Part shown: positions 3,136 through 42,690 of the stretch, piece after piece
Layout: each line of letters starts with the position of its first letter
Position numbering within the stretch: position 1 is the stretch's first letter
Assembly: GCA_964345045.1 (NCBI GenBank)
Contig: CAYFPM010000001.1
Location: 108,215-172,214, forward strand
DNA from: an uncultured Gammaproteobacteria bacterium
GTDB taxonomy: Bacteria; Patescibacteriota; Patescibacteriia; Magasanikbacterales; UBA922
Reading direction: 5' to 3'
DNA: 64,000 bases
The notes under the pieces: model-generated
What the model was told of the DNA's origin: nothing
The model's input: only the letters and a program-made list of their open reading frames with translations
Databases searched by the model: none
Made by a program: the position numbers and the translations under genes

Positions 3136-3214
3136 CGAGTTGTGTGTTCTGTCACTTCTCGGCAGAGGTTCTCCTTTCTTTGCGTCGGTTCTGAGCGGGG
3201 GCGTCAGCTTCCGA

Positions 3215-3934
3215 TCAGCCCTCGACGTCGAGGTAGCTGGGTTCGTCCTGCCCGGGGCGCGAGCGCGAGAAGAGCCAATCGATGCAGGGCTTGATGGCGC
3301 CCACCATCTTGGCTTCATCGAGCTGTCCCATGAAGCTGGGAATGCGGAACGAATACCCCGGCATAGGCAGACGAGAATCCGTAGTATTGTAGTTCCGTTC
3401 TTGCGTGGTGTTCAAGAGACCTGCCGTCCGAAATGAGTTCGCTCCTGGAGCAGACGCGAGCCCAATACGACCAAGGGGGCTACGGTGGGCCGTCTTTTTG
3501 ATCGCTTTGTGCTCCCATTTGAATTTGGCGACGAAGCGAATGTCTCGTTCGTCAATGGCGGAGTGTTGGATCGAGAGATCCACATTGTCCCAGTCGATGA
3601 GATCTCCAGCCGACTGGAGAGAGTCTGCTCCTTGATCGGCGGGGGTGCTTTCGGTTCCCACGGTGTAGAGGACTTTTCGACCATCCTCCATGAGCGAGAC
3701 CCTCACCCCCTTCTTGAGGGGGATCTGGGTTGTTGCCGAGAGGTGGTATTTCGGAGTCTCCTTGGTCGCGGTGACCAAGATCGCGCGGCCGTTATCGGCC
3801 GGGGACACCTGGATGTTTCCTTCCGGGATGTCCGCGAAGACGGTGATTTTCTCTCGGCACTGGTCGGCCGCCATCGAGGTGGTCGGGCTGAAGATGAATA
3901 GGCTCAAAAGAGCCAAAATCAGGCTACGATACAT
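3215..3934 (-). CDS. Secreted hypothetical protein (signal peptide; about 60% GC; AAGGAG RBS)
   Basis: N-terminal MYRSLILALLSLFIFSPTTSMA signal peptide. Strong SD is present. GC is far above the flanking DNA. Confidence 0.55.
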   Translation of the reverse strand: MYRSLILALLSLFIFSPTTSMAADQCREKITVFADIPEGNIQVSPADNGRAILVTATKETPKYHLSATTQIPLKKGVRVSLMEDGRKVLYTVGTESTPADQGADSLQSAGDLIDWDNVDLSIQHSAIDERDIRFVAKFKWEHKAIKKTAHRSPLGRIGLASAPGANSFRTAGLLNTTQERNYNTTDSRLPMPGYSFRIPSFMGQLDEAKMVGAIKPCIDWLFSRSRPGQDEPSYLDVEG

Positions 3935-4032
3935 CGTGTACTCCTTGCGGCCAAAGCCGCTTTGTTGCTTGCTTACTCCCCATCAAATAATGGCAGCTCG
4001 CAGCTAAAAAATATATCAGTAAAATAAGTTTT

Positions 4033-4077
4033 TGTCAACCTCTATTGACAAAAAAAAGTATATATAGTAGAGTGTAG
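4033..4077. promoter_or_regulatory. Divergent sigma70-like promoters with back-to-back -35 boxes (TTGTCAACCTCTATTGACAA); plus-strand TTGACA-N18-TAGAGT
   Basis: Palindromic paired TTGACA hexamers. A TATATT -10 lies on the minus strand about 17 nt from its -35. Confidence 0.45.
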
Positions 4078-4215
4078 CCAATCTATTGGGGTTGCTTTGC
4101 AAGCCCTAGAACGGAGTATCCAATCTGTATCATTAAAAAATGCTATAGAATTGGAGAAGTGCCTCGGGTCAGTCCTGGGAGACACGTTCGAGAATTCTTC
4201 TACAAAAAAGATTTT

Positions 4216-4245
4216 CGAGCCTCCGTACCAACGGAGATTTTTATT
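4216..4245 (+). terminator. Intrinsic terminator/attenuator hairpin (CTCCGTACCAACGGAG + ATTTTTATTT) in the rpsL upstream region
   Basis: 6-bp GC stem with a 4-nt loop followed by a T-rich tract. Confidence 0.45.
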
Positions 4246-4249
4246 TATT

Positions 4250-4337
4250 AAAGAAGCTGTAGAAGCCAGAAAGGCCAGAGAGGCTAGAATGCCTCTTAAG
4301 CCTCTTAAGCTTCTTAAGCCTCCCAAGCTTTTAATAT
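4250..4337 (+). promoter_or_regulatory. 95-bp periodic (9-nt) leader element abutting the rpsL start codon; copy 1
   Basis: AAGAAGCTGTAGAAGCCAGAAAG GCCAGAGAG GCTAGAATG CCTCTTAAG CCTCTTAAG CTTCTTAAG CCTCCCAAG CTTTTAATAT-ATG. About 90% identical to 4748-4843. Confidence 0.7.
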
Positions 4338-4757
4338 ATGCCAACAATGAATCAGGTGTTGCGCAAGGGCAGAAAGAAAAAGACTACCAAGTCAAAATCT
4401 CCTGCCATGCAATTCACCTACGACAGTTTGCACCGCAAGAAAACAGACTTGCGTAGAGGTGCTCCATTCAAAAGAGGTGTTTGTATCAAGGTAACAACCA
4501 AAACACCAAAAAAACCTAACTCTGCGTTGCGTAAGGTAGCTCGTGTCAGACTATCTAACGGAACCGAAGTTTGGGCTTATATCCCAGGTGAAGGACATGG
4601 ATTGCAAGAACACTCTGTAGTTCTAATCCGTGGAGGAAAAGTAAAAGACCTTCCAGGTGTAAAATATCATGTGGTTCGCGGTGTGTACGACACAACCGGA
4701 GTCGAGAATCGCAAACGTAGCCGTTCACTATACGGAACTAAGAAACCTAAATCATAA
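4338..4757 (+). CDS. rpsL: 30S ribosomal protein S12
   Basis: [14 protein letters not shown]...[11 protein letters not shown]...[25 protein letters not shown]. Canonical S12. Confidence 0.95.
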
Positions 4758-4843
4758 AGAAGCTGTAGAAGCCAGAAAGGCTAGAGAGGCTAAAAAGCCT
4801 CCTAAGCTTCTCAGGCCTCTTAAGCCTCTCAAGCTTTTAAAGT
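4748..4843 (+). promoter_or_regulatory. 95-bp periodic leader element abutting the rpsG start codon; copy 2
   Basis: Direct repeat of 4250-4337, ending AAGCTTTTAAAGT-ATGCCAAG. Confidence 0.7.
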
Positions 4844-5329
4844 ATGCCAAGAGGAAAAAGAATTCCGAAACGTGTAGTTTCTCCAGATTCAAGATACAAC
4901 AGTGTGCTTGTTTCCAAGTTCATTAATTTTGTAATGGAAAGAGGTAAAAAAACTGTAGCCGAAAAAATAGTGTACGGTGCTTTTGAAAAACTTGCCGAAA
5001 AGAAAAAAGGCGACGCTATTAAACTATTTGAACAAGTATTAGACATAATTAGACCACAAGTAGAGGTACGCTCTCGTAGAGTTGGTGGTGCCAACTACCA
5101 AGTACCTATGCCAGTAGCCAGTCATCGCCAAAACGCTTTGGCTTTTCGTTGGCTAGTAGGTGCTGCCAAAGCCAGAAGTGGCAAAACCATGCAAGACAAA
5201 CTAGCTATGGAAATGATGGATGTACTAGAAGGAACCGGTGGAGCTGTAAAGAAAAAAGAAGACGTCATTCGTATGGCCGAGGCCAACAAAGCCTTTGCCC
5301 ACTTCGCCAGATTTGGTGGCAGAAGATAA
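4844..5329 (+). CDS. rpsG: 30S ribosomal protein S7
   Basis: MPRGKRIPKRVV...VEVRSRRVGGANYQVP...AFAHF. Canonical S7. Confidence 0.95.
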   Translation: MPRGKRIPKRVVSPDSRYNSVLVSKFINFVMERGKKTVAEKIVYGAFEKLAEKKKGDAIKLFEQVLDIIRPQVEVRSRRVGGANYQVPMPVASHRQNALAFRWLVGAAKARSGKTMQDKLAMEMMDVLEGTGGAVKKKEDVIRMAEANKAFAHFARFGGRR

Positions 5330-7674: not shown

Positions 7675-10600
7675 ATGTTTTCCAAACGTCTGGCTATCTT
7701 GGCCATTATAGGGGGTTTGGGGGGAGCGTTGCTAGGTTTTCAAGAATTAGCAAATGGTTTCACATTGGATTCTGGCAATACAGATCAAGTGAATCTTAAT
7801 ACCTTAAAATTTGATTCTGGCAAAAGTTCGGATATAACTGTTAACAGTCTTTTTTTGTTGGATAATTCGGAAAATGAAAAAGAAGATGAAAAATCTACTT
7901 TTGATACCAAAACAGAAGAAAAAGATGTAAGTAATTTTAGTATATTAAATTTTAATCAAAAATCTACAGAAACAGTTACTGCCACAGTAGATGTAAGTGA
8001 AAATTTTGCAAAAACAGAAGTGACAGATATTAATATTTTGGAACAAAAAAAAGAAGATGAAAAACAAGATCAAGATGAGGGTAGAGAGGATAGTTTGCTT
8101 ATAAAAACTACTCCAATTACTATTACCCCAATAAAGGTGGAGCCGGTGGAGCCTATAAAAAATATTGATGAGGATACCAAACAAAATGAACTACCAAAAA
8201 AAGAAGATCCAAAGGTAATTTCTGAACAGATTGAGACTAAGATTTCTGAGGAGGAAAAACCTGCCGATGCCACAGGCTCTGGCGCTGTGAAAGAAGAGAA
8301 AAAAAGTATTTTTAATATTTTTTCTCCAAAGGTAGACAAGGTTGATATTGAAGTAGAGTCCAAAAAAGATGCTAAAAAAGTAGAAGTAAAAACTTTGCCA
8401 GAAATAAAAGATACTCGTTTGCAAGTTGATTTTGAAATAGAAAAAAAAGAAGATGGATCTGTAAAAGTGGAAGGCTCTAAAGTAAGAACAAATTTGGAAA
8501 TTGCTATTGATAGTAAAGTAAAAGAATCTAACAAAGAAGATGCCCCAAAAGAAGAACAAGTTAAACCAAAAATACTTTCTCCAATCAAACCAACTCTTAT
8601 CAAAACCAAACAAGATCTTGGAACATATGCTGGAGATATTGCTGCTCGTGACACAGATGTAGAATCTGTAGAAATTGAAGAAGACACAGTAGAAGTGTCT
8701 TACAAAAAACCGGCCCGACTCTTTGGTATTTTCCCAACCAAAATAAAGGAAGACGTGGTTGTAAAAACAGATTCATTGGGTCGACCTGATGTAGAAGTAA
8801 AACGTCCTTGGTGGGCTATTTTCACTAGTGAAAAAGATAGTAAAGAAGAAGTAGCCGAAGATATAGAAAAGAGAGTTGGTTACACAGGTACAGGTGCTAG
8901 CAGCCAAGAATCTTCTGTAAGACTAGCTGGAATTCTTGGAGCCATTGATCGTACTATGAAGATTGGTAGTGACAAAGCTACTGGAATTGATGTGGTCTCT
9001 AGTGTAGAAGAAGGTTTGCCAGATAGAGATGACGTGCCAGAAGAAGGTGTACTTGTAAGTGATTTAGATGTCATGATGCGTCAAGCTTTCTTGGGGGACT
9101 TGTTTAATCGTCCTGGTTCTGGAAGCTCGGCTCATATTTTTATCGATCTGGCTATAGAAGGAACTTTTGGTAATTTTGCTTCGCAACAATTAAGTATTGC
9201 CAGCCGCACAGCCGGGGACAGTGGCGAATTTATTGTCGCTGGTATTGGCAGAGTATTGACCATGTTCAACGAAAGAGGACTTAGCCACCAGCATGATGCC
9301 TTCTTGCGTTCAGCTCTAGTACTAGAAGTCGCTAGAGCTATGAATGGAGACGCAGCTGCCGCAGCCTTTGTAAATCAGTATGCTAGTCAAATGAATAATT
9401 TATTGGCAAACAGTGGTGTGCCACTGACAACTTCTGCCAATGGAAATAGAACTTTGGTAAATTTTGCTGTTTGTTCTGGTGCCAATAGAGCTGGTTGTGT
9501 CGATGTCGCTACTCTACTTAGTTCACTTGGTGATCCTCGCTCACTTTCCAATTTGTGTGATCCAGGTAACATGGTGTTGAACGGAATTATGAATTTGGCT
9601 GGAGACGAAAGATATGGATGTGCTCCACCAACCGGAATGTGTGCTACTACCTTGGAAGGTGGTATTAACAATGGAGAAAACGTAGCTCCAGGATTACCAG
9701 GAATACAGCAACCAGAAAATGCCTTGGGACAATCGGATGTTCCAAATGGGGCACAAGGATTTTTGGAAGACCAAGGTATTACCGGTCAAGATTTGGAAAC
9801 CATCTGTGGAGCTCATGCTGCCGGAGCGCTGGGACTAGGCGGTGGAACACAAGAGTGTATAGAAAATGCAATTTCACAAATGGCCAGACAAGATCTGCTT
9901 GGTGCTGCTGGTATGGCTGGTTGTATGGCCGGAGCCCTAGGTCTAGAGCTAGGAGATGACCCAGCCATCGATAGAGTGATTGATGATGCCCTTAACAGTC
10001 GTGGTTGTGGAGACCTAGCCGCCGATGGAGAAAAGAAAGAAACTCCTCCAAAGGAAGAGAAAAAACCAGATCCTTCGAAAGAAACTGAGGAAAAAACTCC
10101 ACCACCAAAAGATAAAGAAGAACCAAAGAAAGAAGAAAAAGGATTTTTTGGTAAATTGTGGGATGCTGTTTTTGGTGGAGGTAATGATAAAAAACCAGGA
10201 GTAGAATTCCAATATGACAAAGAAGGAAAGTTAATTGGTGCAGAATCTGGAAATACAATAGTAAGACTTAATGAAGACGGTGAAGCAATAGTGGAAATAG
10301 GTGGTCAAAATGTAACTGTCGAAGGAAGCCAAAATGAATTGGAAGCTATATTAGACGCCATCGGAGGTGTTTATGATGGAGAAGGTGTAGGAAACATTGT
10401 AGATTATGATTCTACTGGAGAAATATACATTGGAGCACAAAGAGCCCTATTGAAGTTTAAAAATATTAGAGGTTCTTCGTTAGAGCCAAGCTCTGGTTGT
10501 AGCGAAGCTTTGCAAGCTCTAGAAGCAGCCTACACCCAATGTTCTGGCGACATTATAAACAATGCTGCTGCCGGAGCTGGTGTCCCAGGAGGTTCTCCTG

Positions 10601-11133
10601 CCGAAAGAATCGGACGAACTGCTCCAGGATCTAATCCTTTTGGTGGTAGACCAGGCGAGTATGGTGGCACTGCCGGAGCTACAGATCCAATCACTGCGTG
10701 TATGGAAGCCAATAGTTCTAGAACTCATGGTTCTGGTAACTGGGCCTCCAATGGAGGAGCTTGTGGCTTTATGGTTTGTGCCGATGGTACAGATAGTTGT
10801 TGTCAGGGAGCTGGTTTTGGCAATCAAGCAGCCGGAGAATTGCTTCGTGATTTACGAGATTGTACCGAAGTAATGTGTGTCCCAGGTGAGCCATGTCTTT
10901 GTGCTGGTGAACAAAGTACCGGAGAGTTACCAGAGATACCTATTTTTGGAGATGACGGTGGAGTAAATCCTGTAGCCAACGACAGTATTGCCCCAAACGA
11001 AGGTAGTTCGGCCAGAGGATTTTCTGAAACAGTTGGTAACACCAACTTTACAGGTTCTGTAGGAACTGGCTTTGGTGTGGGTTCTGGATCAAATCCAAGC
11101 CAGGAGCTAGACGGTGATGTAAATAGTAGATAA
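7675..11133 (+). CDS. Very large (1152 aa) predicted surface protein: N-terminal TM/signal, long K/E-rich low-complexity region, Gly/Cys-rich C-terminal region
   Basis: MFSKRLAILAIIGGLGGALLGF hydrophobic N-terminus. About 300 aa of KE-rich repeats. C-terminal half is rich in G, C, A and N with many CxxG/C patterns. Confidence 0.6.
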   Translation: MFSKRLAILAIIGGLGGALLGFQELANGFTLDSGNTDQVNLNTLKFDSGKSSDITVNSLFLLDNSENEKEDEKSTFDTKTEEKDVSNFSILNFNQKSTETVTATVDVSENFAKTEVTDINILEQKKEDEKQDQDEGREDSLLIKTTPITITPIKVEPVEPIKNIDEDTKQNELPKKEDPKVISEQIETKISEEEKPADATGSGAVKEEKKSIFNIFSPKVDKVDIEVESKKDAKKVEVKTLPEIKDTRLQVDFEIEKKEDGSVKVEGSKVRTNLEIAIDSKVKESNKEDAPKEEQVKPKILSPIKPTLIKTKQDLGTYAGDIAARDTDVESVEIEEDTVEVSYKKPARLFGIFPTKIKEDVVVKTDSLGRPDVEVKRPWWAIFTSEKDSKEEVAEDIEKRVGYTGTGASSQESSVRLAGILGAIDRTMKIGSDKATGIDVVSSVEEGLPDRDDVPEEGVLVSDLDVMMRQAFLGDLFNRPGSGSSAHIFIDLAIEGTFGNFASQQLSIASRTAGDSGEFIVAGIGRVLTMFNERGLSHQHDAFLRSALVLEVARAMNGDAAAAAFVNQYASQMNNLLANSGVPLTTSANGNRTLVNFAVCSGANRAGCVDVATLLSSLGDPRSLSNLCDPGNMVLNGIMNLAGDERYGCAPPTGMCATTLEGGINNGENVAPGLPGIQQPENALGQSDVPNGAQGFLEDQGITGQDLETICGAHAAGALGLGGGTQECIENAISQMARQDLLGAAGMAGCMAGALGLELGDDPAIDRVIDDALNSRGCGDLAADGEKKETPPKEEKKPDPSKETEEKTPPPKDKEEPKKEEKGFFGKLWDAVFGGGNDKKPGVEFQYDKEGKLIGAESGNTIVRLNEDGEAIVEIGGQNVTVEGSQNELEAILDAIGGVYDGEGVGNIVDYDSTGEIYIGAQRALLKFKNIRGSSLEPSSGCSEALQALEAAYTQCSGDIINNAAAGAGVPGGSPAERIGRTAPGSNPFGGRPGEYGGTAGATDPITACMEANSSRTHGSGNWASNGGACGFMVCADGTDSCCQGAGFGNQAAGELLRDLRDCTEVMCVPGEPCLCAGEQSTGELPEIPIFGDDGGVNPVANDSIAPNEGSSARGFSETVGNTNFTGSVGTGFGVGSGSNPSQELDGDVNSR

Positions 11134-11752: not shown

Positions 11753-12223
11753 ATGAAGAAAATAATTGGAGTTGCTTTGGTAACACTTAGTATGGTTCTT
11801 TTTTTGAGTGGCTGTGCTGTAGGAGAAACAGGTAAACATAATACTTTGGTGGACAAATTAGATGCTGTAGTATCTGCAGACCAGGTATTTTATGGAGAAT
11901 TAGAAAATTATGAACTAGGAGGAGACACTAGTGCTTTAAGAACATCTTTTGATTCTTTCAAAGTTGCTACTGTTGAGTTGGATACTTTTTTTTCAGAGAC
12001 AAAACTTGATAAAGCCCAAGAATCTTTTCAGATAGAGTATGACGTTATTTACAAAAAAGCAGTGGATAGTTATCTATCCAAAGCAGAAGAAGTTGTAGAG
12101 GCTATAGAATCTGGAGTAAATGAGGAAGAGCTTAATGTTTTGTTTGAAGAGATTGTAGAACCAGCTAATGATTTTATAGAAGCAGATAATTCTATGACAG
12201 AGGCTATAAATAAGCAGGCTTAA
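11753..12223 (+). CDS. Putative lipoprotein
   Basis: Signal peptide with lipobox LFLSGC. Confidence 0.5.
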   Translation: MKKIIGVALVTLSMVLFLSGCAVGETGKHNTLVDKLDAVVSADQVFYGELENYELGGDTSALRTSFDSFKVATVELDTFFSETKLDKAQESFQIEYDVIYKKAVDSYLSKAEEVVEAIESGVNEEELNVLFEEIVEPANDFIEADNSMTEAINKQA

Positions 12224-12330: not shown

Positions 12331-15048
12331 ATGATTCAGCTTTTGCGTAAATATACGATTGGTTTTTTGGTTATGGGGGGATTATTTGCTTCATTGTATT
12401 TTTCAACTCAGGTGCAAACAGCATCTTGTTTTGGATTAGAATCTGGCAAACCTTATAAACATCCATTCCATAGTGGTGTTTATTATATTTCAGAAGACTG
12501 TACCAAACGTCCAATAAAAAATTCTAACATATACTTTTCCTATTTCAACAGTTGGAACGATGTGGACACGGTTAGTCAATCATTATTAGATAGTATCCCA
12601 GACAATGAGTTAGGATTTTTACCATGGGGACCAAAAAGAGATTTCAAAAATGGATCACTCTTAAAAACTGTAACTGATCCAAAAGTATATTTGATTCTAA
12701 ATGATAAACGTTATCCAATCGGTAGTGAAACAGCTTTTAGAAATTTGGGTTATTCATTTGCTTGGATAGAAGATGTTGATCAAAGAGTATTAAATAAATA
12801 TTTGGTTGGCCGAGATATTTCGTCGACAAGTGATTATCCAAAAACTTTGGTATTTAAATATGAGGGTAGTCCAAAGGTCTATATATTGGACGATCATAAT
12901 GATAAAGACTTGGGCAAACGTCATGTTATTTCTTATAAAGATTTGTCTCGTGATTACCGGGTAGATAGAATTGCAGTATTACCATCATCTGTAGTTATAA
13001 ATGATTCCCCAGATGGAGAAATTTTAGAAGGAACCAGTTTGAAAGATACAAATAAACAGGTAGAAGAATGTGAAAACTATGCACATGATGGCAGTTGTGA
13101 AAAGGATGAAAAAGAAAGTGAAAATAAAAGTAAAGCGATTTGTGGAAATGGTATAAAAGAAACAGGAGAGTACTGTGATGACGGTAGACTTAATGGTCAA
13201 GCAGGTGAGTGTAATGCACAGTGTAGTGCGTATTTGCCACTTTCTTCAGAACCAAGCGAAGATAGTGATAGTGGATCTATTTGTGGTAACAATATACGAG
13301 AATCAGGAGAAGTATGTGATAGTGGAAGCAACAATGGTAAAGTTGGGTATTGTAATAAAAGTTGTTCAGGCACTATTCCTTCTTCTTCAGTTGTTCTTCC
13401 AACTTTACCACCAGTAGGAACGCCAACCGTCCAATGGACCAAGTTTACCCCGGCGGCCAACACCAATATCATTTATGTAAGTAGCAATGGAAATGACAAG
13501 ACGGGGAAAGTATACTCAGCCGCTGAGGTAGGCAATGACCCATTTAATCCATCTGTTTCTATCCAATCGTTTGCTACTTTGGCAGCTGCCATGAATCAAG
13601 CGCGCAATGATATGCCAGACTGGGTGCTCTTGAAACGTGGTGATACTTTTTATACAGACACTTTGGTTCGTCCACGTAGTGGTCAATCAGCATCGGCAAT
13701 GTCACTCATCGGGAGTTATGGTAGTGGACCGCGTCCTGTTATTATCCCCACTGTAACAGATGTTTCAGTTATCACTGCGCCACCTGGCTTATCCCATGCA
13801 GCCATTACAGACCTCGACATCTATGGTGAACAACACGACCCAACCTCACCAAGCTTTGCTGGTTATGGCACAATGGCTGGAGGCATGCTCATGTTGGCTA
13901 GTACAGGTAATACCAACACAAATATTTTGATTGAAAACAACCGTTTTAGATATCTCGGTGGGGCATTCAATTTTCAAGCCTTTGGTGGCACTTTTACCAA
14001 TGTCACGATCCGTGGCAATGCTATATTGCATTCTTATGGACATACTGGTCATTCGGGGGGTGCATACTTTCAAGAAATCAATGGACTTCTTTTTGAAGGG
14101 AATATTTTTGATCATAATGGTTGGCTTAAGCAAAGCATTCAAGGGAATAATGCGAAGGAAGAGGGACAAGCAACCATTTTTAATCACAATTTATATTTGA
14201 ACGCAGTTCATAATACTACATTGCGTAATAACGCTTTCTTACGGGCTTCGTCAATTGGAGCAAAAGTCCTTTCTGAAAGTGCTACCCAATCAAGTAATGT
14301 TGTGTTTGAAGATAATCTATTTGTAGAAGGAGAAGTGGGGATTAGTTTTGGTGGAAACGACAAAACTGCGCTTCAAAAATATGACACTGTTTCTGTACGG
14401 GATAATGTTTTTATGCATATTGGACGTGCTCGTCCGACCAATCGACATTTGTCTTGGGCGATTACATTAGAGGCTCTCTTTGGTGGGCCAAATGTGATTG
14501 ACGGGAATATTTTTATGCTCCAAGAGGAGTCAAACCTTAGTGGTAATGCCTTTGCCATTCAAGCAACGTTGGCCAATGAACAAACAAGCATAACTAATAA
14601 TATCGTCTACGATTACTATTCAGACAGTGGAACGATGACATTGTACAACAATGCCGGGAACTCTCAGATTACGTTTGCAAATAATGAAGTTCAATCTCCT
14701 GGATATAGCTCTGTACTAATGAACTACGAAGCCGGGCCATATACATACTCTGGCAATAAATACTACTCTACAGCACCAACTAGCGGATGGTTTGTTGATA
14801 AAAGCAAGGGGAATGGGGTGGATCAATCGATGTGGTCTACTCTCTCAGGGGAGTCTAATCCACAGTTCTCGCAAGCATCCTACCCAAATCCAAATGTCCG
14901 TTTAGAATCGTATGTTAGTAGTCAAGGCAAGGGCAGCACATATTCCGATTTTATTAATGTTATGCGTGCTCAAGAACGTGCTAGCTGGAATGCCAATTTT
15001 GAACCATCAGTAATTAATGATTACATTCGAGCTGGATTTGGAAGATAA
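12331..15048 (+). CDS. Secreted 905-aa protein with Cys-rich CGNGI..GExCDDG repeats and a C-terminal parallel beta-helix (pectate-lyase-like) region
   Basis: Signal peptide. CGNGIKETGEYCDDGRLNGQAGECNAQCS and CGNNIRESGEVCDSGSNNGKVGYCNKSCS repeats. Repetitive N-rich I/V-x-N motifs typical of right-handed beta-helix. The 3' half is about 45% GC versus about 35% in the 5' half. Confidence 0.6.
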   Translation: MIQLLRKYTIGFLVMGGLFASLYFSTQVQTASCFGLESGKPYKHPFHSGVYYISEDCTKRPIKNSNIYFSYFNSWNDVDTVSQSLLDSIPDNELGFLPWGPKRDFKNGSLLKTVTDPKVYLILNDKRYPIGSETAFRNLGYSFAWIEDVDQRVLNKYLVGRDISSTSDYPKTLVFKYEGSPKVYILDDHNDKDLGKRHVISYKDLSRDYRVDRIAVLPSSVVINDSPDGEILEGTSLKDTNKQVEECENYAHDGSCEKDEKESENKSKAICGNGIKETGEYCDDGRLNGQAGECNAQCSAYLPLSSEPSEDSDSGSICGNNIRESGEVCDSGSNNGKVGYCNKSCSGTIPSSSVVLPTLPPVGTPTVQWTKFTPAANTNIIYVSSNGNDKTGKVYSAAEVGNDPFNPSVSIQSFATLAAAMNQARNDMPDWVLLKRGDTFYTDTLVRPRSGQSASAMSLIGSYGSGPRPVIIPTVTDVSVITAPPGLSHAAITDLDIYGEQHDPTSPSFAGYGTMAGGMLMLASTGNTNTNILIENNRFRYLGGAFNFQAFGGTFTNVTIRGNAILHSYGHTGHSGGAYFQEINGLLFEGNIFDHNGWLKQSIQGNNAKEEGQATIFNHNLYLNAVHNTTLRNNAFLRASSIGAKVLSESATQSSNVVFEDNLFVEGEVGISFGGNDKTALQKYDTVSVRDNVFMHIGRARPTNRHLSWAITLEALFGGPNVIDGNIFMLQEESNLSGNAFAIQATLANEQTSITNNIVYDYYSDSGTMTLYNNAGNSQITFANNEVQSPGYSSVLMNYEAGPYTYSGNKYYSTAPTSGWFVDKSKGNGVDQSMWSTLSGESNPQFSQASYPNPNVRLESYVSSQGKGSTYSDFINVMRAQERASWNANFEPSVINDYIRAGFGR

Positions 15049-16328: not shown

Positions 16329-17822
16329 TTCATTGAGAGTTTGATCCTGGCTCAGGATGAACGTTGGCGGCGTGTCTAAGGCATGCAAGTCGAGCGACGG
16401 ACCCACTTCGGTGGGGGACCGAGCGGCAAACGGGTGAGTAACACATTGGTAACCTACCTCCGAGACGAGAATAGCTCATCGAAAGATGAATTAATACTCG
16501 ATAGTCATGAGGGGACGAAAGTCATTCTCATGTAAACCTCCGGGGCTCGGAGAGGGGCCTATGTCTGATTAGCTTGTTGGTAGGGTAAAAGCCTACCAAG
16601 GCGATGATCAGTAGCAGGCGTGAGAGCGTGACCTGCCTCACTGGGACTGAGACACTGCCCAGACTCCTACGGGAGGCTGCAGTCAAGAATATTCCGCAAT
16701 GGACGAAAGTCTGACGGAGCGACGCCGCGTGCAGGAAGACGCCCTTCGGGGTGTAAACTGCTTTTATTAGGGAAGAATTTGTGACGGTACCTAATGAATA
16801 AGAGGTTGCTAACTCTGTGCCAGCAGCAGCGGTAATACAGAGACCTCAAACGTTATCCGGATTTATTGGGCGTAAAGCGTCCGCAGGTTGTTTGGGAAGT
16901 CAGCGGTCAAATCTTCGGGCTTAACTCGAAGACTGCTACTGATACTCCCAGACTAGAGGCTGGAAGAGGCAAGCGGAATTTTCGGTGTAGTCGTAATAAG
17001 CGCTGATATCGAAAAGAACACCAAAGGCGAAGGCAGCTTGCTGGTACATGCCTGACACTCATGGACGAAAGCGTGGGTAGCGAATGGGATTAGATACCCC
17101 AGTAGTCCACGCCCTAAACGATGTCTACTAGGTATTGGAAGTATCGACCCTTTCAGTGCCGTTTAAAAAAGCTAACGCGTTAAGTAGACCGCCTGTGTAG
17201 TACGGCCGCAAGGCTAAAACATAAAGGAATAGACGGGGACCCGCACAAGCGGTGGATCATGCGGTTTAATTCGATGATACGCGGCGAACCTCACCCAGAC
17301 TTGACATGTAACTGCAAGCTCCTAGAAATAGGAGCCGCCTTCGAGGGTGTTACACAGGTGCTGCATGGTTGCCGTCAGCTCGTGCCGTGAGGTGTACCCT
17401 TAAGTGGGGTAACGAGCGCAACCCTCGTCTTGTGTTACATTGTACACAAGAGACTGCCCGGGCAACCGGGAGGAAGGTGAGGACGACGTCAAATCAGCAT
17501 GGCTCTTACGCCTTGGGCGACACACATGATACAATGGCCAGTACAACAGGTTGCCAACCCGCGAGGGGGAGCTAATCCTATAAAGCTGGTCTCAGTTCGG
17601 ATTGCAGGCTGCAACTCGCCTGCATGAAGTTGGAATCGCTAGTAAACGCGCATCAGCCACGGCGCGTTGAATACGTTCTCGGGTCTTGTACTCACCGCCC
17701 GTCACACCACGAAAGCTGGGGGCACCCGAAGGCTCTTTACGGGGACGAAGGTGAAACCAGTGATCAGGGTGAAGTCGTAACAAGGCATCCGTAGCGGAAG
17801 CTGTGGATGGATCACCTCCTTT
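16329..17822 (+). rRNA. rrs: 16S ribosomal RNA (complete, solitary)
   Basis: 5' AGAGTTTGATCCTGGCTCAG. Internal universal blocks GTGCCAGCAGCAGCGGTAATAC and GGATTAGATACCC. 3' end GGATCACCTCCTTT. No 23S follows. Confidence 0.95.
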
Positions 17823-17936
17823 CTGGAGTATATTTGCCGGAAGGCAAATCACAGATTTCGAACTTATGGTTCGGGATTAAATTATCAGAGTAGACCTAAA
17901 TCATCAGTTTCTTTGTCACATTTGTGGTATGAATAA

Positions 17937-31049: not shown

Positions 31050-32330
31050 TTGTTTAGTATGTTGGAAAAATTAAAAAGAATTTGGAAAATAAAAGAATTA
31101 CGAGGCAGCATCTTGTTTGTTCTTGGAATGCTTGTTATCTTCCGTTTGGTAGCTCATATCCCTGTGCCGGGGGTAGATGTAGACAATCTAAGAGCTTTTT
31201 TGGCAGGCAACCAAGTGCTTGGATTACTTAATGTATTTTCTGGTGGGACTATAGAAAATTTTTCTGTAGTCATGCTTGGGATTGCTCCGTATATTACTTC
31301 TTCTATTATTTTTCAGTTGCTTACCATGGTTGTCCCACAGTTAGAAGAGCTAAGTAAAGAAGGTGAGTCTGGTCAGCAAAAAATAAATATGTATACCAGA
31401 TTGGCTACCGTGCCATTGGCTTTGTTACAAGCTTATGCATTTTTGCAACTGTTAAATAATTCTAACGCAGCTATCTTTGGCGGAGTTTCTACTTGGCAGT
31501 TTATTTCCATGGTATTGGTTGTCACTGCCGGTACTGTCTTCCTAATGTGGATTGGAGAGCTTATCACCGAAAGAAAAATTGGTAATGGTATTTCATTGCT
31601 TATCTTTGCTGGTATTATTTCTGCTTTGCCAAGCGCACTTCGTAATGCCATTGTAAACTATAATCCATCGGATCTTTATACTTATATTTTGTTTTTGGTG
31701 ATTGCAATTGCCACTGTAGTAGGTGTTGTAATTATTAGTGAAGGACAAAGAAATATTCCAGTTAGTTATGCCAAACAAGTTCGTGGTGGTAGAGTGCTTG
31801 GTGGCGCTACTACTCATTTGCCACTTCGTGTAAACATGGCTGGAGTTATCCCGATTATCTTTGCGATTTCAATTGTGCTTTTCCCATCTATGGTAGCTCA
31901 ATTTTTTGTAAATGGAACTGGATTTTTGGCTAGGGCTTCTGAGGCGACTATTAATTTGTTTAACAATCAATTGTTTTACGGAGCTACTTATTTTTTGTTA
32001 GTATTTGGTTTTACATATTTCTACACAGCTGTAATTTTCAAACCGGAAAAAATGGCTGAAAATTTGCAACGACAGGGTGGTTTTATTCCAGGTATTAGAC
32101 CAGGCAAAGAAACCGAAGAATACTTGTCTAGAACTATGACCAGATTGGTTTTTGTTGGAGCTTTGTTTTTGGCTATTATTGCTATTTTGCCTCTCTTAAT
32201 GCAGCTTATTACCAATTCTCAAACTTTGGTAGTTGGTGGTACTGGTCTGCTTATCGTGGTGTCTGTGGCTATAGAAACTGCCAAGCAAATTCAAGCACAG
32301 TTGACTGTGCACGAGTACGATAAGATCTAG
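31050..32330 (+). CDS. secY: Preprotein translocase subunit SecY
   Basis: 10-TM topology and conserved ...LGIAPYITSSIIFQLL... block. Confidence 0.95.
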   Translation: MFSMLEKLKRIWKIKELRGSILFVLGMLVIFRLVAHIPVPGVDVDNLRAFLAGNQVLGLLNVFSGGTIENFSVVMLGIAPYITSSIIFQLLTMVVPQLEELSKEGESGQQKINMYTRLATVPLALLQAYAFLQLLNNSNAAIFGGVSTWQFISMVLVVTAGTVFLMWIGELITERKIGNGISLLIFAGIISALPSALRNAIVNYNPSDLYTYILFLVIAIATVVGVVIISEGQRNIPVSYAKQVRGGRVLGGATTHLPLRVNMAGVIPIIFAISIVLFPSMVAQFFVNGTGFLARASEATINLFNNQLFYGATYFLLVFGFTYFYTAVIFKPEKMAENLQRQGGFIPGIRPGKETEEYLSRTMTRLVFVGALFLAIIAILPLLMQLITNSQTLVVGGTGLLIVVSVAIETAKQIQAQLTVHEYDKI

Positions 32331-32364: not shown

Positions 32365-32399
32365 TACCCCGCACCATTTTGGTGCGGGGTTCTTTTTTG
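32365..32399 (+). terminator. Intrinsic terminator after secY
   Basis: ACCCCGCACC-ATTTT-GGTGCGGGGT followed by TCTTTTTTG. Confidence 0.7.
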
Positions 32400-32484
32400 T
32401 CTTCATTTTTATAAAAACAAAAGAGATGGGGGAGTAGGTGAAATACACTTGGGTAAGGCTCTCAGCTACTCAGGTGTGGGCATT

Positions 32485-33456
32485 CTAAGCGCCACGGAAA
32501 GGACATTCTTCCAAACGTAGTTCCTTGATCACAGACTCTGGGGGGCAATATCGAAGTGGCTGGTTGAACCAGCGCTTCTCTTGGCTTCCTTCTTCTAGAC
32601 AGAAACCGCCGCATTCAGAGGTTTCCTCCTCGAAGTATTCAATGGCTCGTTCCACTACGCTACCTTTGTCACCAATAATCTGCTTGAGATCTTCAGCGAG
32701 GCCGACAGCGGCCTTGGTTCGCTTCTCTTGGTTTTGGGCTAGGCGCCGGTTGGCTTCTTCCACGTCCAGGCTTTCCGGAACCTCTAGCTGCTCAACTTGG
32801 CTTAGCCTGAGCGAAAACCACATTCGACCTAGCTGGACGATATCCAGTTGATCATTACTCTGACGTAGTGCATCTTCGATAACCGGGATCGCTCCGCGGA
32901 TACCCAGGATCATCAGAGCAATTCGTGCTTGGTTCTTTGTGGCTAGATCGATTCGGTTGTTGATGAGAGCGTCGTGGACGACGCGGCGAGCCACAACTTG
33001 CCAGGCAAGTCCGCAAAATACGGCGTCATACTCCTTGAATTCATCGAATCCATGCAGGTTGAGCGCTTCCGATGCCTCTACAAGCATGGAGTAAGCATGC
33101 TGTCGCTGTCCGATCTGGTTGGCGGCGAGCAGGTTGGCCGCGGCGCAGGCCAGCGAGGCTCCCTGCCCGGTTGCGAAGCCGGTCCAGGTGCTGGGCCACT
33201 TGGTGCAGACACGGGGTTCAACCTGGAGACCCCTGATCTTGTTGTCGGTGTTGATGGGGTCGTCTTTGGCTAGAAGAGACGGGGTGATGTGTAGTGCACA
33301 TCTGTTTTCGTGTCGTGGGGTCATCGTGTCCGCGATGGGATTCTGCAGAAGAGGTTCCTTTTGGACGGGGGTGTTGGTAGATGTTTCGTGACACCCACTA
33401 GTTATGGTAGCGAACAGGACGAGGATGTTGACGATTGCCGAGTTGCTTTTCAGCAT
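32485..33456 (-). CDS. GC-rich (about 58%) putative lipoprotein inserted between secY and adk
   Basis: Signal peptide with lipobox (ITSGC). GAAAGGA RBS. Codon usage and GC clearly differ from neighbours. C-terminal Cys-containing tail. Confidence 0.55.
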   Translation of the reverse strand: MLKSNSAIVNILVLFATITSGCHETSTNTPVQKEPLLQNPIADTMTPRHENRCALHITPSLLAKDDPINTDNKIRGLQVEPRVCTKWPSTWTGFATGQGASLACAAANLLAANQIGQRQHAYSMLVEASEALNLHGFDEFKEYDAVFCGLAWQVVARRVVHDALINNRIDLATKNQARIALMILGIRGAIPVIEDALRQSNDQLDIVQLGRMWFSLRLSQVEQLEVPESLDVEEANRRLAQNQEKRTKAAVGLAEDLKQIIGDKGSVVERAIEYFEEETSECGGFCLEEGSQEKRWFNQPLRYCPPESVIKELRLEECPFRGA

Positions 33457-33586
33457 GGATCGTTCCTTTCTTGCTTGTTGGTGTGCCTAGCCAAGTATAT
33501 ACAGCTTGGGCACAGTTGTAAAAAGAGCAATATGTAAATCTATCAAAAATTTGTATATTTGTCAATATTTAAATAATTAATTATTC

Positions 33587-33615
33587 TTGTCAACCTAGCA
33601 AAATTTTGTTATAGT
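33587..33615 (+). promoter_or_regulatory. sigma70-like promoter (TTGTCA-N17-TATAGT)
   Basis: CTTGTCAACCTAGCAAAATTTTGTTATAGT. Confidence 0.45.
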
Positions 33616-33640: not shown

Positions 33641-33937
33641 ATGGGAATTTTAGGGGACATTTTTGGTTTTTCTGCTAGCAATCTTTCTACAGAGGAAAAA
33701 TCCGTTAGCCGAGCAGTTATAGATAATTTGGTCTCTTCTAGCCGGGTGCAAAGTTTGTCACAAAAAGAAGCTATAGAAATAAGACAAGAACTAGACAAGC
33801 GTCGTCGGGGAGATGGAAAAATATCTTTGGCTCAAGTACACGAAGTTTTACTAAGATTGAGAAACCAAAATAAAATAAGTGAAGTAGATAAAAAAGGTGT
33901 AGAAAGACAGTTTAAAAATTATTTTGAAAATAGCTAA
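33641..33937 (+). CDS. Hypothetical 98-aa protein translationally coupled to adk
   Basis: Its stop codon lies 1 nt before the adk ATG. Native-like composition. Confidence 0.45.
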   Translation: MGILGDIFGFSASNLSTEEKSVSRAVIDNLVSSSRVQSLSQKEAIEIRQELDKRRRGDGKISLAQVHEVLLRLRNQNKISEVDKKGVERQFKNYFENS

Positions 33938-33938
33938 C

Positions 33939-34532
33939 ATGAAAAAAGTTATTATACTTATGGGGGTTCCTGGTAGTGGCAAGGGAACCCAAGCCAAAAA
34001 AATTGTTGAAAAATATAATTATGGTCATATTTCGACCGGAGATTTATTGCGTGCTTTGGAAAGTGATGCGAATGCCGACCCAGAAGATTTGCAAAAATTG
34101 GCCGACATGAAGGCCGGCAAATTAGTCTCTGATGATTTGATTTACAAACTAGCTTTTCGAGAAATTGAAAAATATCTAGACAATGGTCAAGGAGTGGTTC
34201 TTGATGGAGCTATAAGAAATGCAGACCAAGCCAAAAAGTATCAACAATTTTTTGAAGAAAAAAACCTGGGAGACGATATGGTAGTAATAGAAGTGCATAT
34301 TTCCGACGAGACAATTATGAGAAGATTAGAAATAAGATTGGAAACATTTGGTAAAACCAGATCGGACGATGACCCGGAAATAATGAAAAAAAGAATTAAA
34401 GAACAAGGTAACGAAGCTATTAAACCAATTCTAGATTATTATAAAGAATTAAATATTTTAGAAGTAATAGATGGGGAACCTCCAATTGATGAAGTTGAAA
34501 AAAGTGTGGAGGAAGTTTTATCAAAAAATTAA
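33939..34532 (+). CDS. adk: Adenylate kinase
   Basis: MKKVIILMGVPGSGKGTQAKKIVEKYNYGHISTGDLLR. Confidence 0.9.
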   Translation: MKKVIILMGVPGSGKGTQAKKIVEKYNYGHISTGDLLRALESDANADPEDLQKLADMKAGKLVSDDLIYKLAFREIEKYLDNGQGVVLDGAIRNADQAKKYQQFFEEKNLGDDMVVIEVHISDETIMRRLEIRLETFGKTRSDDDPEIMKKRIKEQGNEAIKPILDYYKELNILEVIDGEPPIDEVEKSVEEVLSKN

Positions 34533-36799: not shown

Positions 36800-36891
36800 A
36801 CTTCTCAATAGTCTCGATGATTCAAGATGATTGGGAATTGGGGGAAGGCGGGGGCTGTAGTCTGAATTAACTCAGCGCGTTCCCGAAGGAG

Positions 36892-37911
36892 CTATTTGTG
36901 GAATACCACACCCTCTGAGCCGAGGGAGAAGACGATTCCTCGTCCACTCTCTACCATGGCCATATAGCATCTCTGATTGGCCTTGAGCTTGTCGCTGCAA
37001 TAACTCGCGGTCACTTGACCTAGGTGGTAGAGCTGCTCCTCGCCAAAGGCGCGCAGAGGCTGGTGGTTGTAGGTCGCGTAGGCCAGGTTCCGGCGCTCGC
37101 CGTTGACCGGACGGATGTAGAACCCAAGCTGTACGGTAGGGTCTGCCATCATTTGACCCAAGAGCTTGCGTTCACTACGGTTCAGCCTAGCGGCTCGAGA
37201 CCTCAGGACTAGTTCTGTTGCGATCTTTTCCAGCAGATCCCAGCGAGCGTGGGCCATCTTCTCGAGTGCCTCCAAGGCCTTTTGTGATCCATCCTTGTAG
37301 GGGGTCTCTACCTTGAAGGTGATGACTCGGAGATCTCCGTTGAACATCCTGTTGAAGTAGGCCAATAGGACCTCGACCTGGGGCTCGGTGCGAGTCGCCC
37401 TGTACACTGGAGCCAGGAGACCTGTTCTCTCCATGGGGCCAGCGATAGTGACTTCGAATTGGTTTAACCCGACATGCCGGATGCCCTGAACGTGCCACTG
37501 GTGCAGCTTGGGTTTGCCTGCATCTCGTGCAGCTGCCAGGCGTTGCATCTCAGCTTGGGCGTGCTGAAAGTGGTGGCGCCAGGCCTGCTCAGCATCCTCC
37601 ATCTTTGCAAAGGGTGCCTTGAAGGTGATGCCCTGGAGATCTTCGAACCTATCGACACCGTGAAACGGCATGATCGTGAGGTTGAAGTAGCTCCTACAGA
37701 TCAGAGCAGGCGCTCTTGGGTCGGTGACTGGCTTGATCAAGAGACATTGGCTAAGCCGTGCCCCTCTGTAGTTCGGGGTGTAGCTGGTGGTGTGGATCAC
37801 CTTCCAGGTGTGAAGCTTGGGCGGCTTTTTGGCCTCGGCTTCTGGGGTGGTCAGCAGGTTGAAGACAGCCGCCACAACCAGAATCAAAAGAGCGGTTAGA
37901 GTTCGACGCAT
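36892..37911 (-). CDS. GC-rich secreted hypothetical protein with internal tandem duplication
   Basis: The start was chosen at MRRTL.. (signal peptide) with GGGAGG RBS. Two homologous halves (KPPKLHTWKV...FKAPFAKMEDAEQAWRHHFQ and KPKLHQWHVQ...FKVETPYKDGSQKALEALEK). About 58% GC. Confidence 0.6.
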   Translation of the reverse strand: MRRTLTALLILVVAAVFNLLTTPEAEAKKPPKLHTWKVIHTTSYTPNYRGARLSQCLLIKPVTDPRAPALICRSYFNLTIMPFHGVDRFEDLQGITFKAPFAKMEDAEQAWRHHFQHAQAEMQRLAAARDAGKPKLHQWHVQGIRHVGLNQFEVTIAGPMERTGLLAPVYRATRTEPQVEVLLAYFNRMFNGDLRVITFKVETPYKDGSQKALEALEKMAHARWDLLEKIATELVLRSRAARLNRSERKLLGQMMADPTVQLGFYIRPVNGERRNLAYATYNHQPLRAFGEEQLYHLGQVTASYCSDKLKANQRCYMAMVESGRGIVFSLGSEGVVFHK

Positions 37912-38261
37912 GATTGATTCCTCCCTCATGCTGGATATGCATCTTGGCGATAAAACCTTGACGCGTTTTGGCGTGACTAGAAGACCCTCGTATAGTCCGA
38001 AGACAGAGGGGAAACAGCAGACCAAGATTGACCCACTATTTTCCAGCTGTTTTGGCTAAAAATAGGCAGATATTTGACTTGGCAGAATACCACATTGTTA
38101 CTAGCTTGTCAATATGACGTTCTCTCTCATTTCAAAGCACTTGACATAGTTTTTTGAGTCTGATAACTTAAAATTAATATGATTAAATTTGTTCAAACAA
38201 TTCAAAATCGTCGTAACAACTTCCTCTTTCGAGAGTAGGTTGTGTTGATATTTAAAATAAA

Positions 38262-42228: not shown

Positions 42229-42690
42229 ATGAGCCAGCCGAGTATCAATCTTGGAGCTTTTGGAGGAGGAAGAGAGCAAGATCTAGCCAGGATATTGGTA
42301 AAGATGGAGCCCAGCTATGATTTGTTGATGGCCTTGGCACACGAATTGGATGTGACCAGGCCGGAGGCTACTCGTAGGTGGCAGCAGCTCTTGTACTATC
42401 TGGTGACTTTGTTTTACATGCGGTATGTAATCGATCGTATCGACTATACCGAAAAGTTCACGCAGCTGCCCAGCACTTTCGCGCCCATGTGGAAACTTTT
42501 TTGTGATGCGAGTAGTGAAGGGGTTCGCCTTTTCGAGGGCAATTATTTCCCCGGCTGGAACTGGCAGTGGCGTGAGTCGGGAGAGTACGAACCTTGTGAG
42601 AGGATCGATGCTGAGTTCGTAGCCATAGTTGTAGATGTGGCAGAGGATTTACTAGGTATCCCCGTCGACAGAGAGCTCTGGCAGCTATAG
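42229..42690 (+). CDS. Hypothetical protein (about 50% GC, AAAGGAGGAAG RBS); island gene
   Basis: The start was chosen at MSQPS with a strong SD. W-rich, no known domain. Confidence 0.45.
   Translation: MSQPSINLGAFGGGREQDLARILVKMEPSYDLLMALAHELDVTRPEATRRWQQLLYYLVTLFYMRYVIDRIDYTEKFTQLPSTFAPMWKLFCDASSEGVRLFEGNYFPGWNWQWRESGEYEPCERIDAEFVAIVVDVAEDLLGIPVDRELWQL

Follow-up and report, generated by a model that had tools for sequence, protein, structure and literature searches.

The window analysed here is a 64-kb stretch of a Candidatus Magasanikbacteria (Patescibacteria/CPR) chromosome. It contains secY (31050-32330, plus strand), which matches PF00344, has a host-like composition (GC.377, GC3.31) and is the last gene of a ribosomal-protein operon of the spc type. 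It is followed by a bidirectional intrinsic terminator (32366-32390, both strands), whose 11-bp stem includes 8 GC pairs and is flanked by an A-run on its left and a T-run on its right. Further downstream are orf98 (33641-33937, plus strand), a small conserved ORF without a Pfam family that is found in the secY/adk interval of many Magasanikbacteria, and adk (33924-34532, plus strand), which starts with TTG at 33924 in the ORF list, the called 190-aa product corresponding to the ATG at 33939. A host promoter, TTGTCA-17-TATAGT with an extended -10 TG (33587-33615, plus strand), serves orf98-adk-map and has equivalents in relatives.

Between secY and orf98/adk, on the opposite strand, a GC-rich island holds gc323, a gene of 323 codons with an ATG start (32485-33456, minus strand). 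A preliminary description had reported at this place an antisense lipoprotein-type ORF with a GAAAGGA ribosome-binding site, and both are present. The first 22 codons (33391-33456, minus strand) encode a signal peptide predicted from the sequence and a putative lipobox, MLKSNSAIVNILVLFATITSG followed by C22, while the Shine-Dalgarno (SD) site GAAAGGA (33464-33470, minus strand) lies 7 nt before the ATG and complements the 16S 3' end, CACCTCCTTTCT, with a duplex of -8.6 kcal/mol. The gene had also been credited with its own promoter and terminator. A sigma-70-like promoter, TTTACA-17-TATACT (33494-33522, minus strand), was indeed recognised at the right island edge by a consensus scan, but the terminator belongs to secY and the host. 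No strong inverted repeat other than the hairpin at 32366-32390 lies near gc323. This hairpin is predicted to end transcription of secY on the plus strand and of gc323 on the minus strand; it is shared, and not gc323's own, because it is bidirectional and serves secY, and it is a host feature because relatives without the insert carry equivalent hairpins after secY. Neither flanking direct repeats nor target-site duplications were found around the island, where the candidates were short matches at chance level, and no integrase or transposase (ORF list) or tRNA gene (scan of ~32-34 kb) was found near gc323.

Composition and coding capacity of the island

Maximum-likelihood change points delimit a GC-rich segment of 1065 bp (32428-33492, without strand) with a GC of 0.543, between flanks of 0.373 and 0.339. 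The step is sharp at both edges and the contrast is 17-20 points, below the more than 20 points first claimed. The value of ~58% GC given earlier for the gene is also slightly high, the measured one being 54% (0.544; GC1.63, GC2.41, GC3.60), and a GC of 0.60 is reached only in the 5' half. Codon and compositional analysis, which had been proposed as a check, sets the gene apart from the 52 host genes, whose mean GC is 0.373 (sd.027) and mean GC3 is 0.274 (sd.046), so that gc323 has z = 6.4 for GC and z = 7.1 for GC3. Its relative synonymous codon usage (RSCU) correlates with that of host genes at -0.32 to +0.06, against a host-host mean of.60. The amino-acid composition is shifted besides the silent sites, with a Lys/(Lys+Arg) ratio of.38 versus.67 in the host.

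The stretch might be a non-coding RNA or repeat in which the long ORF is a by-product of few stop codons, which are scarce in GC-rich DNA, and ORFs of 75-108 aa do overlap gc323 on the other strand. This reading is hardly credible, as the stop-free stretch of the island spans 333 codons and 2000 shuffles of the island gave a maximum of 253 and a mean of 117, the order GC1 > GC3 > GC2 is typical of coding sequence, and the SD site and the signal peptide are correctly placed. Rfam detected no RNA family in the island or in the same-slot GC-rich inserts of six relatives. The protein homologues of gc323, with their common conserved Cys and motifs, already refute the non-coding reading.

Since the source is a metagenome-assembled genome and the composition changes abruptly at both edges, an assembly chimera or contamination, with reads of a GC-richer organism misjoined, was also considered. 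It is very unlikely, and is rejected on the strength of two independent assemblies, which were made from different runs with different assemblers. That of ERR2281802 from ENA (L001) and that of ERR2281803 from Logan (L002) each match the window at 100% across the two junctions, over an identical stretch of 3.7-4.0 kb. The protein collection has gc323 on a 621-kb NCBI contig, both sides of the island are host sequence, with the gene placed neatly between a terminator and a promoter, and the pattern recurs at six sites of the window and in other genomes.

Predicted product and the gc323 family

The N-terminus of gc323, MLKSNSAIVNILVLFATITSGC, has a lysine at position 3, a hydrophobic core and then I-T-S-G-C22. 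Like bacterial lipoproteins that use Sec and signal peptidase II, it combines a basic n-region, a hydrophobic h-region, small residues at -1 and -2 and Cys at +1, and a disordered tether precedes a folded domain. It differs from them by a Thr at -3 (...LFATITSG-C22) in the place of the classical Leu/Val/Ile, and therefore fails the strict lipobox [LVI][ASTVI][GAS]C; it presumably agrees with the relaxed PROSITE PS51257 rule. A classical lipobox, ...LFLSGC, is borne by a native-GC protein of the window (11753-12223), which suggests that the lipoprotein pathway may be in use in the host. The gc323 product is thus predicted from these signals to be a secreted lipoprotein, lipidated at Cys22. The public gene call (P0001, 279 aa) starts at Met45 and loses the signal peptide.

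In the model, residues 23-76 form a disordered tether and residues ~77-323 an all-alpha, Cys-rich domain, which is probably extracytoplasmic. The AlphaFold2 model, of medium confidence (pTM.69, mean pLDDT 70), shows ~11 stacked alpha helices. Such an all-alpha stack recalls ARM/HEAT/TPR-type helical-repeat proteins, but in resemblance only. The best Foldseek neighbours, Hgh1 (6hb3), the LGN TPR and the CLASP TOG domains, are not significant (best E = 0.97 in PDB and 2.2 in BFVD; TM <=0.3), and E was 0.46 at best when PDB sequences were searched with a profile. No family match for gc323 was found in Pfam, NCBIfam, PHROGs or PADLOC, and a Pfam scan of every family member returned sub-threshold noise.

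HMMER, run exhaustively against 1.84 billion representatives (~15 billion proteins), found only five homologues of gc323, at 26-42% identity, which lie at unrelated loci on Patescibacteria-like contigs. The closest, 42% identical, is on an unclassified contig, and the one of L084 belongs to an organism named 'Patescibacteria group bacterium' by NCBI. The members have in common conserved Cys and the motifs GQRQxAY and VFCG. The homologues also begin with signal peptides; P0004 has LLFSC, and some members, such as P0006, have an apparent signal peptidase I site, with cleavage between AQA and E, instead of a lipobox. Searches with gc323 by tblastn against phages and plasmids gave no match, and a search with a three-sequence alignment of the family found nothing in IMG/VR or JGI contigs. 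The six members found among ~15 billion proteins make up a new family of predicted secreted, all-alpha, Cys-rich proteins, which is a candidate for CPR-host surface interaction.

The genes of this family are GC-richer than their surroundings in 4/6 contexts and GC-poorer in none of the six. The L085 copy is a GC-rich islet (.49 versus.33-.38) in a low-GC, SD-poor genome. In L083 and L084 the SD site is retained even though the GC of the gene equals that of the genome.

The secY-adk interval in relatives and the other GC-rich genes

The order rplO-secY ... adk-map of the spc/alpha junction of model bacteria (rplO-secY-adk-map) is kept here, but in this clade one operon ends and another begins at the junction, where a terminator, a promoter and the extra orf98 are present. 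No homologue of gc323 was found within 5-6 kb of secY in 160 related loci (80 GTDB species representatives and 80 JGI contigs), so that the orthologue at this position which was to disprove the acquisition did not turn up, and the nearest relative found has a SecY identity of 83%. In the closest informative relatives either the order is secY-orf98-adk, with a ~460-bp gap, or secY lies directly next to adk. In relatives without the insert a hairpin terminator follows secY and a promoter then precedes orf98, and gc323 occupies the space between these two pre-existing elements. The DNA of gc323 landed in an existing gap between two transcription units, after the secY terminator and before the orf98-adk-map promoter. 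The acquisition was therefore not into a core operon, as had been proposed: secY and adk are not continuous in this clade, where the conserved orf98 intervenes. The gene itself is no member of the spc/alpha operon, since it is antisense and set apart by the terminator and by divergent promoters.

Other relatives carry unrelated GC-rich ORFs in the same slot, and this cargo is not homologous between lineages. The secY-adk gap holds 8/18 GC3-excess ORFs, yet it represents 6.6% of the sequence. Two species, L030 and L107, whose core DNA is 84-87% identical, have a GC-rich islet of this slot in common, and therefore the GC contrast can outlast speciation. The insertion had been called recent, which is not established: it is undatable because the relatives found reach 83% SecY identity at most, and GC-rich islets persist across species. 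The contrast of 17-20 points is thus not readable as a recent acquisition.

The window contains at least six GC-rich, SD-led orphan genes, gc323 included, a point absent from the preliminary description. The product of gc339 (36892-37911, minus strand; 339 aa) has a signal peptide, and the gene has the SD site GGGAGGA, a GC3 of about.67-.69 and an island at 36833-38023; it is convergent with recO, whose terminator is common to both, a layout like that of gc323 and secY. A signal peptide is also present in the 239-aa product of gc239 (3215-3934, minus strand; SD AAGGAG, GC3.71). The other three orphans are gc102 (2133-2441, minus strand; 102 aa, GC.51, SD AAGGAG), gc153 (42229-42690, plus strand; 153 aa, GC.50, GC3 about.58, SD AAAGGAGGA) and gc192 (62562-63140, plus strand; 192 aa, GC.49, SD TAGGAGGGG). 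These islets are scattered, with one gene each, and carry an SD and a promoter-like site. The RSCU of gc323 correlates at.61 with gc239 and.69 with gc339. The six proteins have no match in Pfam or PHROGs, all-against-all BLASTP found no paralogy among them, and NCBIfam gave no match for gc323, gc239 and gc339. Each of these three matched only itself in a word-indexed search of 5.8 billion proteins, and neither gc339 nor gc239 has a match in IMG/VR.

A strong SD motif precedes 6/6 of the GC-rich genes of the window and no more than 6/44 host genes have so much as a weak match, in a host whose 16S rRNA retains the anti-SD sequence. Across the clade, the motif is present in 12 of 26 GC3-excess ORFs versus 27 of 1868 native ORFs (Fisher p = 7e-15), and an upstream window used as control scored 8-15%. 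Across 137 loci, antisense orientation goes together with GC excess and SD use.

Such a link could mean that gc323 is one of a class of native, vertically maintained genes, SD-dependent, GC-rich and mostly secreted, whose composition and translation signal are held by selection, for example as a separate translational regime. The SD sites that persist in L083 and L084, where GC has equilibrated, the islet that persists between L030 and L107, and a family that is never GC-poorer than its surroundings agree with this class. It is improbable, however, because no same-position orthologue exists among the 160 related loci, the cargo of the slot differs between lineages, the homologues are very rare (five in 1.84 billion representatives) and at unrelated loci, and the amino-acid composition of gc323 is shifted in addition to its silent sites. 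As a point against acquisition, the GC excess and SD sites kept in the family could reflect selection and not inheritance from a donor.

The islet could also be cargo or a remnant of a Patescibacteria phage, plasmid or other mobile element, and not directly acquired chromosomal DNA of a cell. Orphan genes often derive from mobile elements, the six proteins are orphans as described above, one-gene islets with their own SD and promoter-like sites are many and scattered, and the secY-adk gap is a recurrent slot. This origin is quite unlikely in view of the lack of any match in the PHROG, PADLOC, phage, plasmid and IMG/VR searches, the absence of an integrase, attachment-type repeats or adjacent phage genes, and the single gene per islet. 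The lack of mobility signatures, of a donor and of phage, plasmid or IMG/VR matches can likewise be held against acquisition. Integron cassettes are also single orphan genes of differing composition and often of unassigned function, but gc323 has its own promoter-like site and SD, and the islets are scattered and not arrayed. An integron cassette or isolated attC was rejected, as there is no intI and no attC core motif (RYYYAAC...GTTRRRY) was seen on reading the gc323 3' flank by eye.

Origin of gc323 and its meaning for Patescibacteria

The gene is probably a horizontally acquired single-gene islet of ~1.07 kb in the Magasanikbacteria chromosome. Its foreign origin, which was proposed from the start, is well supported: the gene departs from the host in GC, GC3, codon usage, Lys/Arg ratio and SD use and is absent in relatives, while its homologues are distributed off the species phylogeny and several copies are GC-rich islets in their own hosts. 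The islet brings its own SD site and a coding sequence with a composition unlike that of the host. As it sits in a natural inter-operon gap and is one of at least six foreign-looking single genes of the window, it counts as an ordinary acquisition, albeit one whose signature is unusually clear. A donor that uses SD sites and has ~55% GC is expected, and gc239 and gc339 may have come from it too. The homology search suggested for tracing it yielded the five distant homologues and no donor lineage; since Patescibacteria-like contigs carry the few homologues, other Patescibacteria with a higher GC are the foremost candidates.

Transcription of gc323 would start from the sigma-70-like promoter at the right edge of the island, antisense to the neighbours, and would end at the bidirectional hairpin of secY, so that it would neither interrupt nor read into the host operons. 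The product would be exported by Sec, lipidated at Cys22 and anchored at the surface by the ~55-residue disordered tether, displaying a 250-residue all-alpha, helical-repeat-like domain, which disulfides among eight further cysteines would probably stabilise. Judging by this topology and the medium-confidence model, gc323 most likely acts as a surface binding protein.

Up to 13% of the genome length of Patescibacteria is reported to stem from horizontal transfer, mostly between Patescibacteria (PMC12455944). The genomic islets described in that work resemble gc323 in their atypical composition, absence from relatives, patchy homologues and accessory or surface-related cargo. In contrast with them, gc323 has no integrase, tRNA gene or direct repeats, is GC-richer than its host, has an SD site although the native genes of the genome avoid this signal and lies in a terminator-promoter gap beside a ribosomal-protein operon. 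Foreign DNA is more often AT-richer than its host.

A broader proposal, speculative and on balance doubtful, is that Magasanikbacteria-type Patescibacteria, almost all of whose native genes are translated without an SD site, also share across the clade a distinct pool of orphan genes that depend on SD sites, are GC-rich and mostly encode secreted proteins or lipoproteins. These genes would insert singly and usually antisense in gaps between a terminator and a promoter, the secY-adk gap being a recurrent site, and would keep their GC-rich and SD character across speciation. If true, such a pool would imply either continual exchange from a shared pool of surface-protein cassettes or a selected, separate translation regime for cell-surface and host-interaction genes. 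As native genes avoid SD sites, the presence of one is an easy sign, whatever the composition, that a gene of this clade is accessory or foreign, and gene finders trained on the SD-free starts of the host may mis-annotate genes of the gc323 type. gc323 itself illustrates very cleanly how a CPR genome that is ultra-small and prone to symbiosis may gain a surface protein and leave its essential operons undamaged.

The gc323 gene and the secY/orf98 boundary

The gc323 ORF has 323 codons with an ATG start and is located at 32485-33456 on the reverse strand, between secY (31050-32330, +) and orf98 (33641-33937, +), a conserved ORF of 98 aa that is followed by adk and map. Its Shine-Dalgarno (SD) sequence, GAAAGGA, spans 33464-33470 (-), 7 nt upstream of the ATG, so the antisense ORF and the ribosome-binding site of the preliminary description are both present. 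The island has sharp boundaries, with change points at 32428 and 33492, and its GC content is 0.543, against 0.373 in the left flank and 0.339 in the right one; the earlier values of about 58% GC and a contrast above 20 points were slightly too high, the measured ones being 54% and 17-20 points. The ORF itself has a GC of 0.544 and a GC3 of 0.60, versus host means of 0.373 and 0.274 over 52 genes (z = 6.4 and 7.1). The stop-free stretch has 333 codons, while the longest in 2000 shuffles of the island has 253, and a spurious ORF is scarcely conceivable. An assembly chimera is highly improbable and was rejected, since the ENA assembly of ERR2281802 and the Logan assembly of ERR2281803 each match the window with 100% identity across both junctions.

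The window has a GC content of 38.9% and contains a ribosomal-protein gene cluster with rplO-secY at its end, a complete 16S rRNA gene (16329-17822, +) and other housekeeping genes. Its SecY is 61-83% identical to those of many Candidatus Magasanikbacteria and Patescibacteria MAGs, which places the host, a CPR bacterium, in that clade. No 23S rRNA, 5S rRNA or 16S-adjacent tRNA gene is found within the 64 kb, and the rRNA genes of the host appear to be unlinked. Upstream of the 16S gene, and adjoining fusA, there are two very large proteins of 1152 and 905 aa (7675-11133 and 12331-15048, both +), which have native GC and N-terminal hydrophobic segments and are probably surface proteins.

The insertion site, which had been taken for the inside of a core operon, is an operon boundary. 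A strong hairpin at 32366-32390, flanked by an A-run and, on the opposite side, a T-run, forms a bidirectional terminator, and two divergent sigma-70-like promoters lie between the island and orf98: TTTACA-17-TATACT (-) at the island edge, and TTGTCA-17-TATAGT with an extended -10 TG (+). In 13 insert-free relatives the secY-orf98 spacer has about 60-300 bp, and most of them carry a hairpin-plus-T-run terminator and then promoter-like sequence, so the boundary is ancestral; the clade order is secY, terminator, promoter and orf98-adk-map. gc323 was inserted between the ancestral secY terminator and the orf98-adk-map promoter, and its transcript would end in the host terminator. Of the flanking signals that had been ascribed to the gene itself, the promoter-like site at the island edge holds, while the terminator belongs to the host. 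Another GC-rich gene, gc339 (36892-37911, -), has the same layout relative to recO and the recO terminator. orf98, which starts with MG(I/F/L)(L/F), has conserved counterparts in the secY-adk interval of many Magasanikbacteria (33-51% identity) and matches no Pfam family.

The gc323 protein and its homologues

In a word-indexed search of 5.8 billion clusters, the gc323 protein matched only itself. Its public gene call, P0001 (NCBI, ENA and Logan), starts at Met45 and has 279 aa, so that both the signal peptide and the lipobox are missing from it. Three features speak for Met1, at 33456, as the likely true start: the SD site, the signal peptide, and the N-terminal sequences of the homologues. 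The N-terminus MLKSNSAIVNILVLFATITSG-C22 is a predicted signal peptide that ends in a lipobox-like sequence. Five homologues, with 26-42% identity, came out of an exhaustive HMMER comparison with 1.84 billion representatives, and all four full-length ones have an N-terminal signal peptide, the fifth being a C-terminal fragment of 100 aa. The family shares an RxC cysteine, GQRQxAYxML, VFCG and a C-terminal CxxxC...CPP...CP.

The AlphaFold2 model, from a 6-sequence alignment, has a mean pLDDT of 70 and a pTM of 0.69, with low confidence in residues 1-76, which span the signal peptide and a tether, and about 11 helices in residues 77-323. Foldseek gave nothing significant (best E 0.97 in PDB and 2.2 in BFVD), the weak neighbours being repeats of ARM/TPR/HEAT type, and a profile search of PDB sequences found no match. 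Eight cysteines follow Cys22 (53, 84, 104, 148, 282, 286, 304 and 318), which would fit an extracytoplasmic, disulfide-bonded domain, and the product is predicted to be a surface-tethered binding protein.

The homologues are found in unrelated genomic loci, one of them (P0004) in an NCBI 'Patescibacteria group bacterium'. In P0002 and P0004 the GC equals that of the respective genome, yet both homologues keep AAGGAG sites, which their neighbours lack. P0005 is itself a GC-rich islet (0.49) in an SD-poor genome of 31-34% GC, and its neighbours include further GC-rich, SD-led secreted orphans. Its contig, L085, is unrelated to the window and low in GC (about 0.31-0.34). At least four genes on it are GC-rich (0.49-0.61; 1500-5200, 10001-10687 and 12969-13568), P0005 among them, with signal peptides in two or three, SD sites in three and no match in Pfam.

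SD sites and the GC-rich genes

gc323 is not unique: if the 16S gene is set aside, six genes account for the GC-rich stretches of the window, the other five being gc102 (2133-2441, -), gc239 (3215-3934, -), gc339, gc153 (42229-42690, +) and gc192 (62562-63140, +). Their GC3 is 0.49-0.71 versus 0.17-0.38 in host genes. None of the six proteins matches Pfam, PHROGs or PADLOC, and gc323, gc239 and gc339, which all have signal peptides, find no match in NCBIfam. The codon usage of these three is mutually correlated (RSCU r = 0.52-0.69; host-host mean 0.60), the mean island-host correlation is -0.07, and a common source is plausible. A terminator-like module of 37 nt, CCAATCAAAAAAAGCTTACATAAGTAGGCTTTTTTTG, occurs three times with 0-1 mismatch (2070-2106, 2502-2538 and 3096-3132, -), once each after gc239, a LuxR-type gene and gc102; chance predicts none, and the window has no further copy. 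The LuxR-type gene (2570-3046, -) encodes a protein of 158 aa that consists of two LuxR/GerE-type helix-turn-helix domains in tandem, with neither a receiver nor a sensor domain; its GC is like that of the host, it lacks an SD site, and a GC-rich orphan gene flanks it on either side.

Within the window, SD use is confined to the GC-rich accessory genes. All six have strong sites 4-8 nt from the ATG (AAGGAG, AAGGAG, GAAAGGA, GGGAGGA, AAAGGAGGA and TAGGAGGGG), whereas host leaders are AT-rich, of the type TAAAAAT-ATG, and only 6 of 44 host genes have even a weak SD-like tetramer. The host 16S keeps the anti-SD CACCTCCTTTCT at its 3' end (about 17815-17826), so these sites should be usable. A clade survey covered the window and 136 related loci (137 sequences), with 1965 ORFs that are 100 aa or longer. 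Between -20 and -3, an SD duplex at least as strong as -7 kcal/mol was found in 27/1868 ORFs with native GC3, versus 12/26 of those whose GC3 excess is larger than 0.2 (Fisher p = 7e-15). The upstream control window, -48 to -30, gave such duplexes in 8-15%, and SD-like matches are rarer than this in native genes. GC-excess ORFs are also more often antisense to their neighbours (mean 0.57 vs 0.06) and have more N-terminal hydrophobic segments (31% vs 13%). The SD site is a mark of foreignness independent of composition. In many Parcubacteria the anti-SD motif is less often detected (PMC9297842); a narrowly targeted literature search found no description of the contrast between native and accessory genes.

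The secY-adk gap in relatives and the origin of the islet

The absence of gc323 from relatives stands, with no orthologue at this position and no homologue within 5-6 kb of secY in 160 related loci. secY directly adjoins adk in L091 (SecY 83%), and in L094 (78%) and L095 (77%) the order is secY-orf98-adk and the gaps measure about 460 bp. Among 63 relatives with secY and then adk, the gap is at most 650 bp in 44 and above 1 kb in 13; it makes up 6.6% of the sequence of these loci and holds 8 of their 18 GC3-excess ORFs. Its cargo, such as a lipoprotein of 141 aa (L107) and membrane proteins (L105, L030 and L107), is unrelated to gc323, so the slot is used recurrently. Two other relatives have GC-rich antisense genes, L069 8937-9524 (-) and L152 8649-9332 (-), with 49% mutual identity; in the former, an SD site and an evident N-terminal signal peptide are present, and the called start of the latter has neither, the matching MKLWTM segment lying about 35 residues in.

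L030 and L107, with 84-87% identity in core DNA, have a common GC-rich islet in the slot at 79-90%, so islets can outlast speciation and GC contrast alone is no proof of recency. Between these two Magasanikbacteria species the islet (L030 7192-9098 and L107 4277-6276) is rearranged and encodes a conserved membrane protein starting MS(G/D)ELKAAWWW...FIPFWANDWPLGK (74% aa identity). Of the proposed recent horizontal acquisition, the foreign origin is upheld by composition and by the absence in relatives, and "recent" is not established. Persistence across species, together with the SD sites kept in homologues with equilibrated GC, would also suit a class of SD-dependent genes that is native and under selection, but gc323 is absent in relatives, the slot cargo is non-homologous between lineages and the family is extremely rare, which makes such a class unlikely. 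Cargo or a remnant of an unidentified mobile element is a somewhat fainter prospect still; no integrase or flanking repeat is found at the islet, and the family has no member in IMG/VR, JGI contigs, or phage or plasmid collections.

The best explanation, and a probable one, is a single-gene islet encoding a surface lipoprotein, acquired by horizontal transfer into an inter-operon gap from an SD-using donor of about 55% GC. The donor could be another Patescibacterium, and the gap in which the islet would be fixed is a harmless one. Such an islet is of a known kind, and what is new is its orphan secreted protein family. The main interest lies in the clade-wide contrast of native genes, which are SD-free, with GC-rich accessory genes, which are SD-led, and in the secY-adk gap as a slot that is used recurrently.
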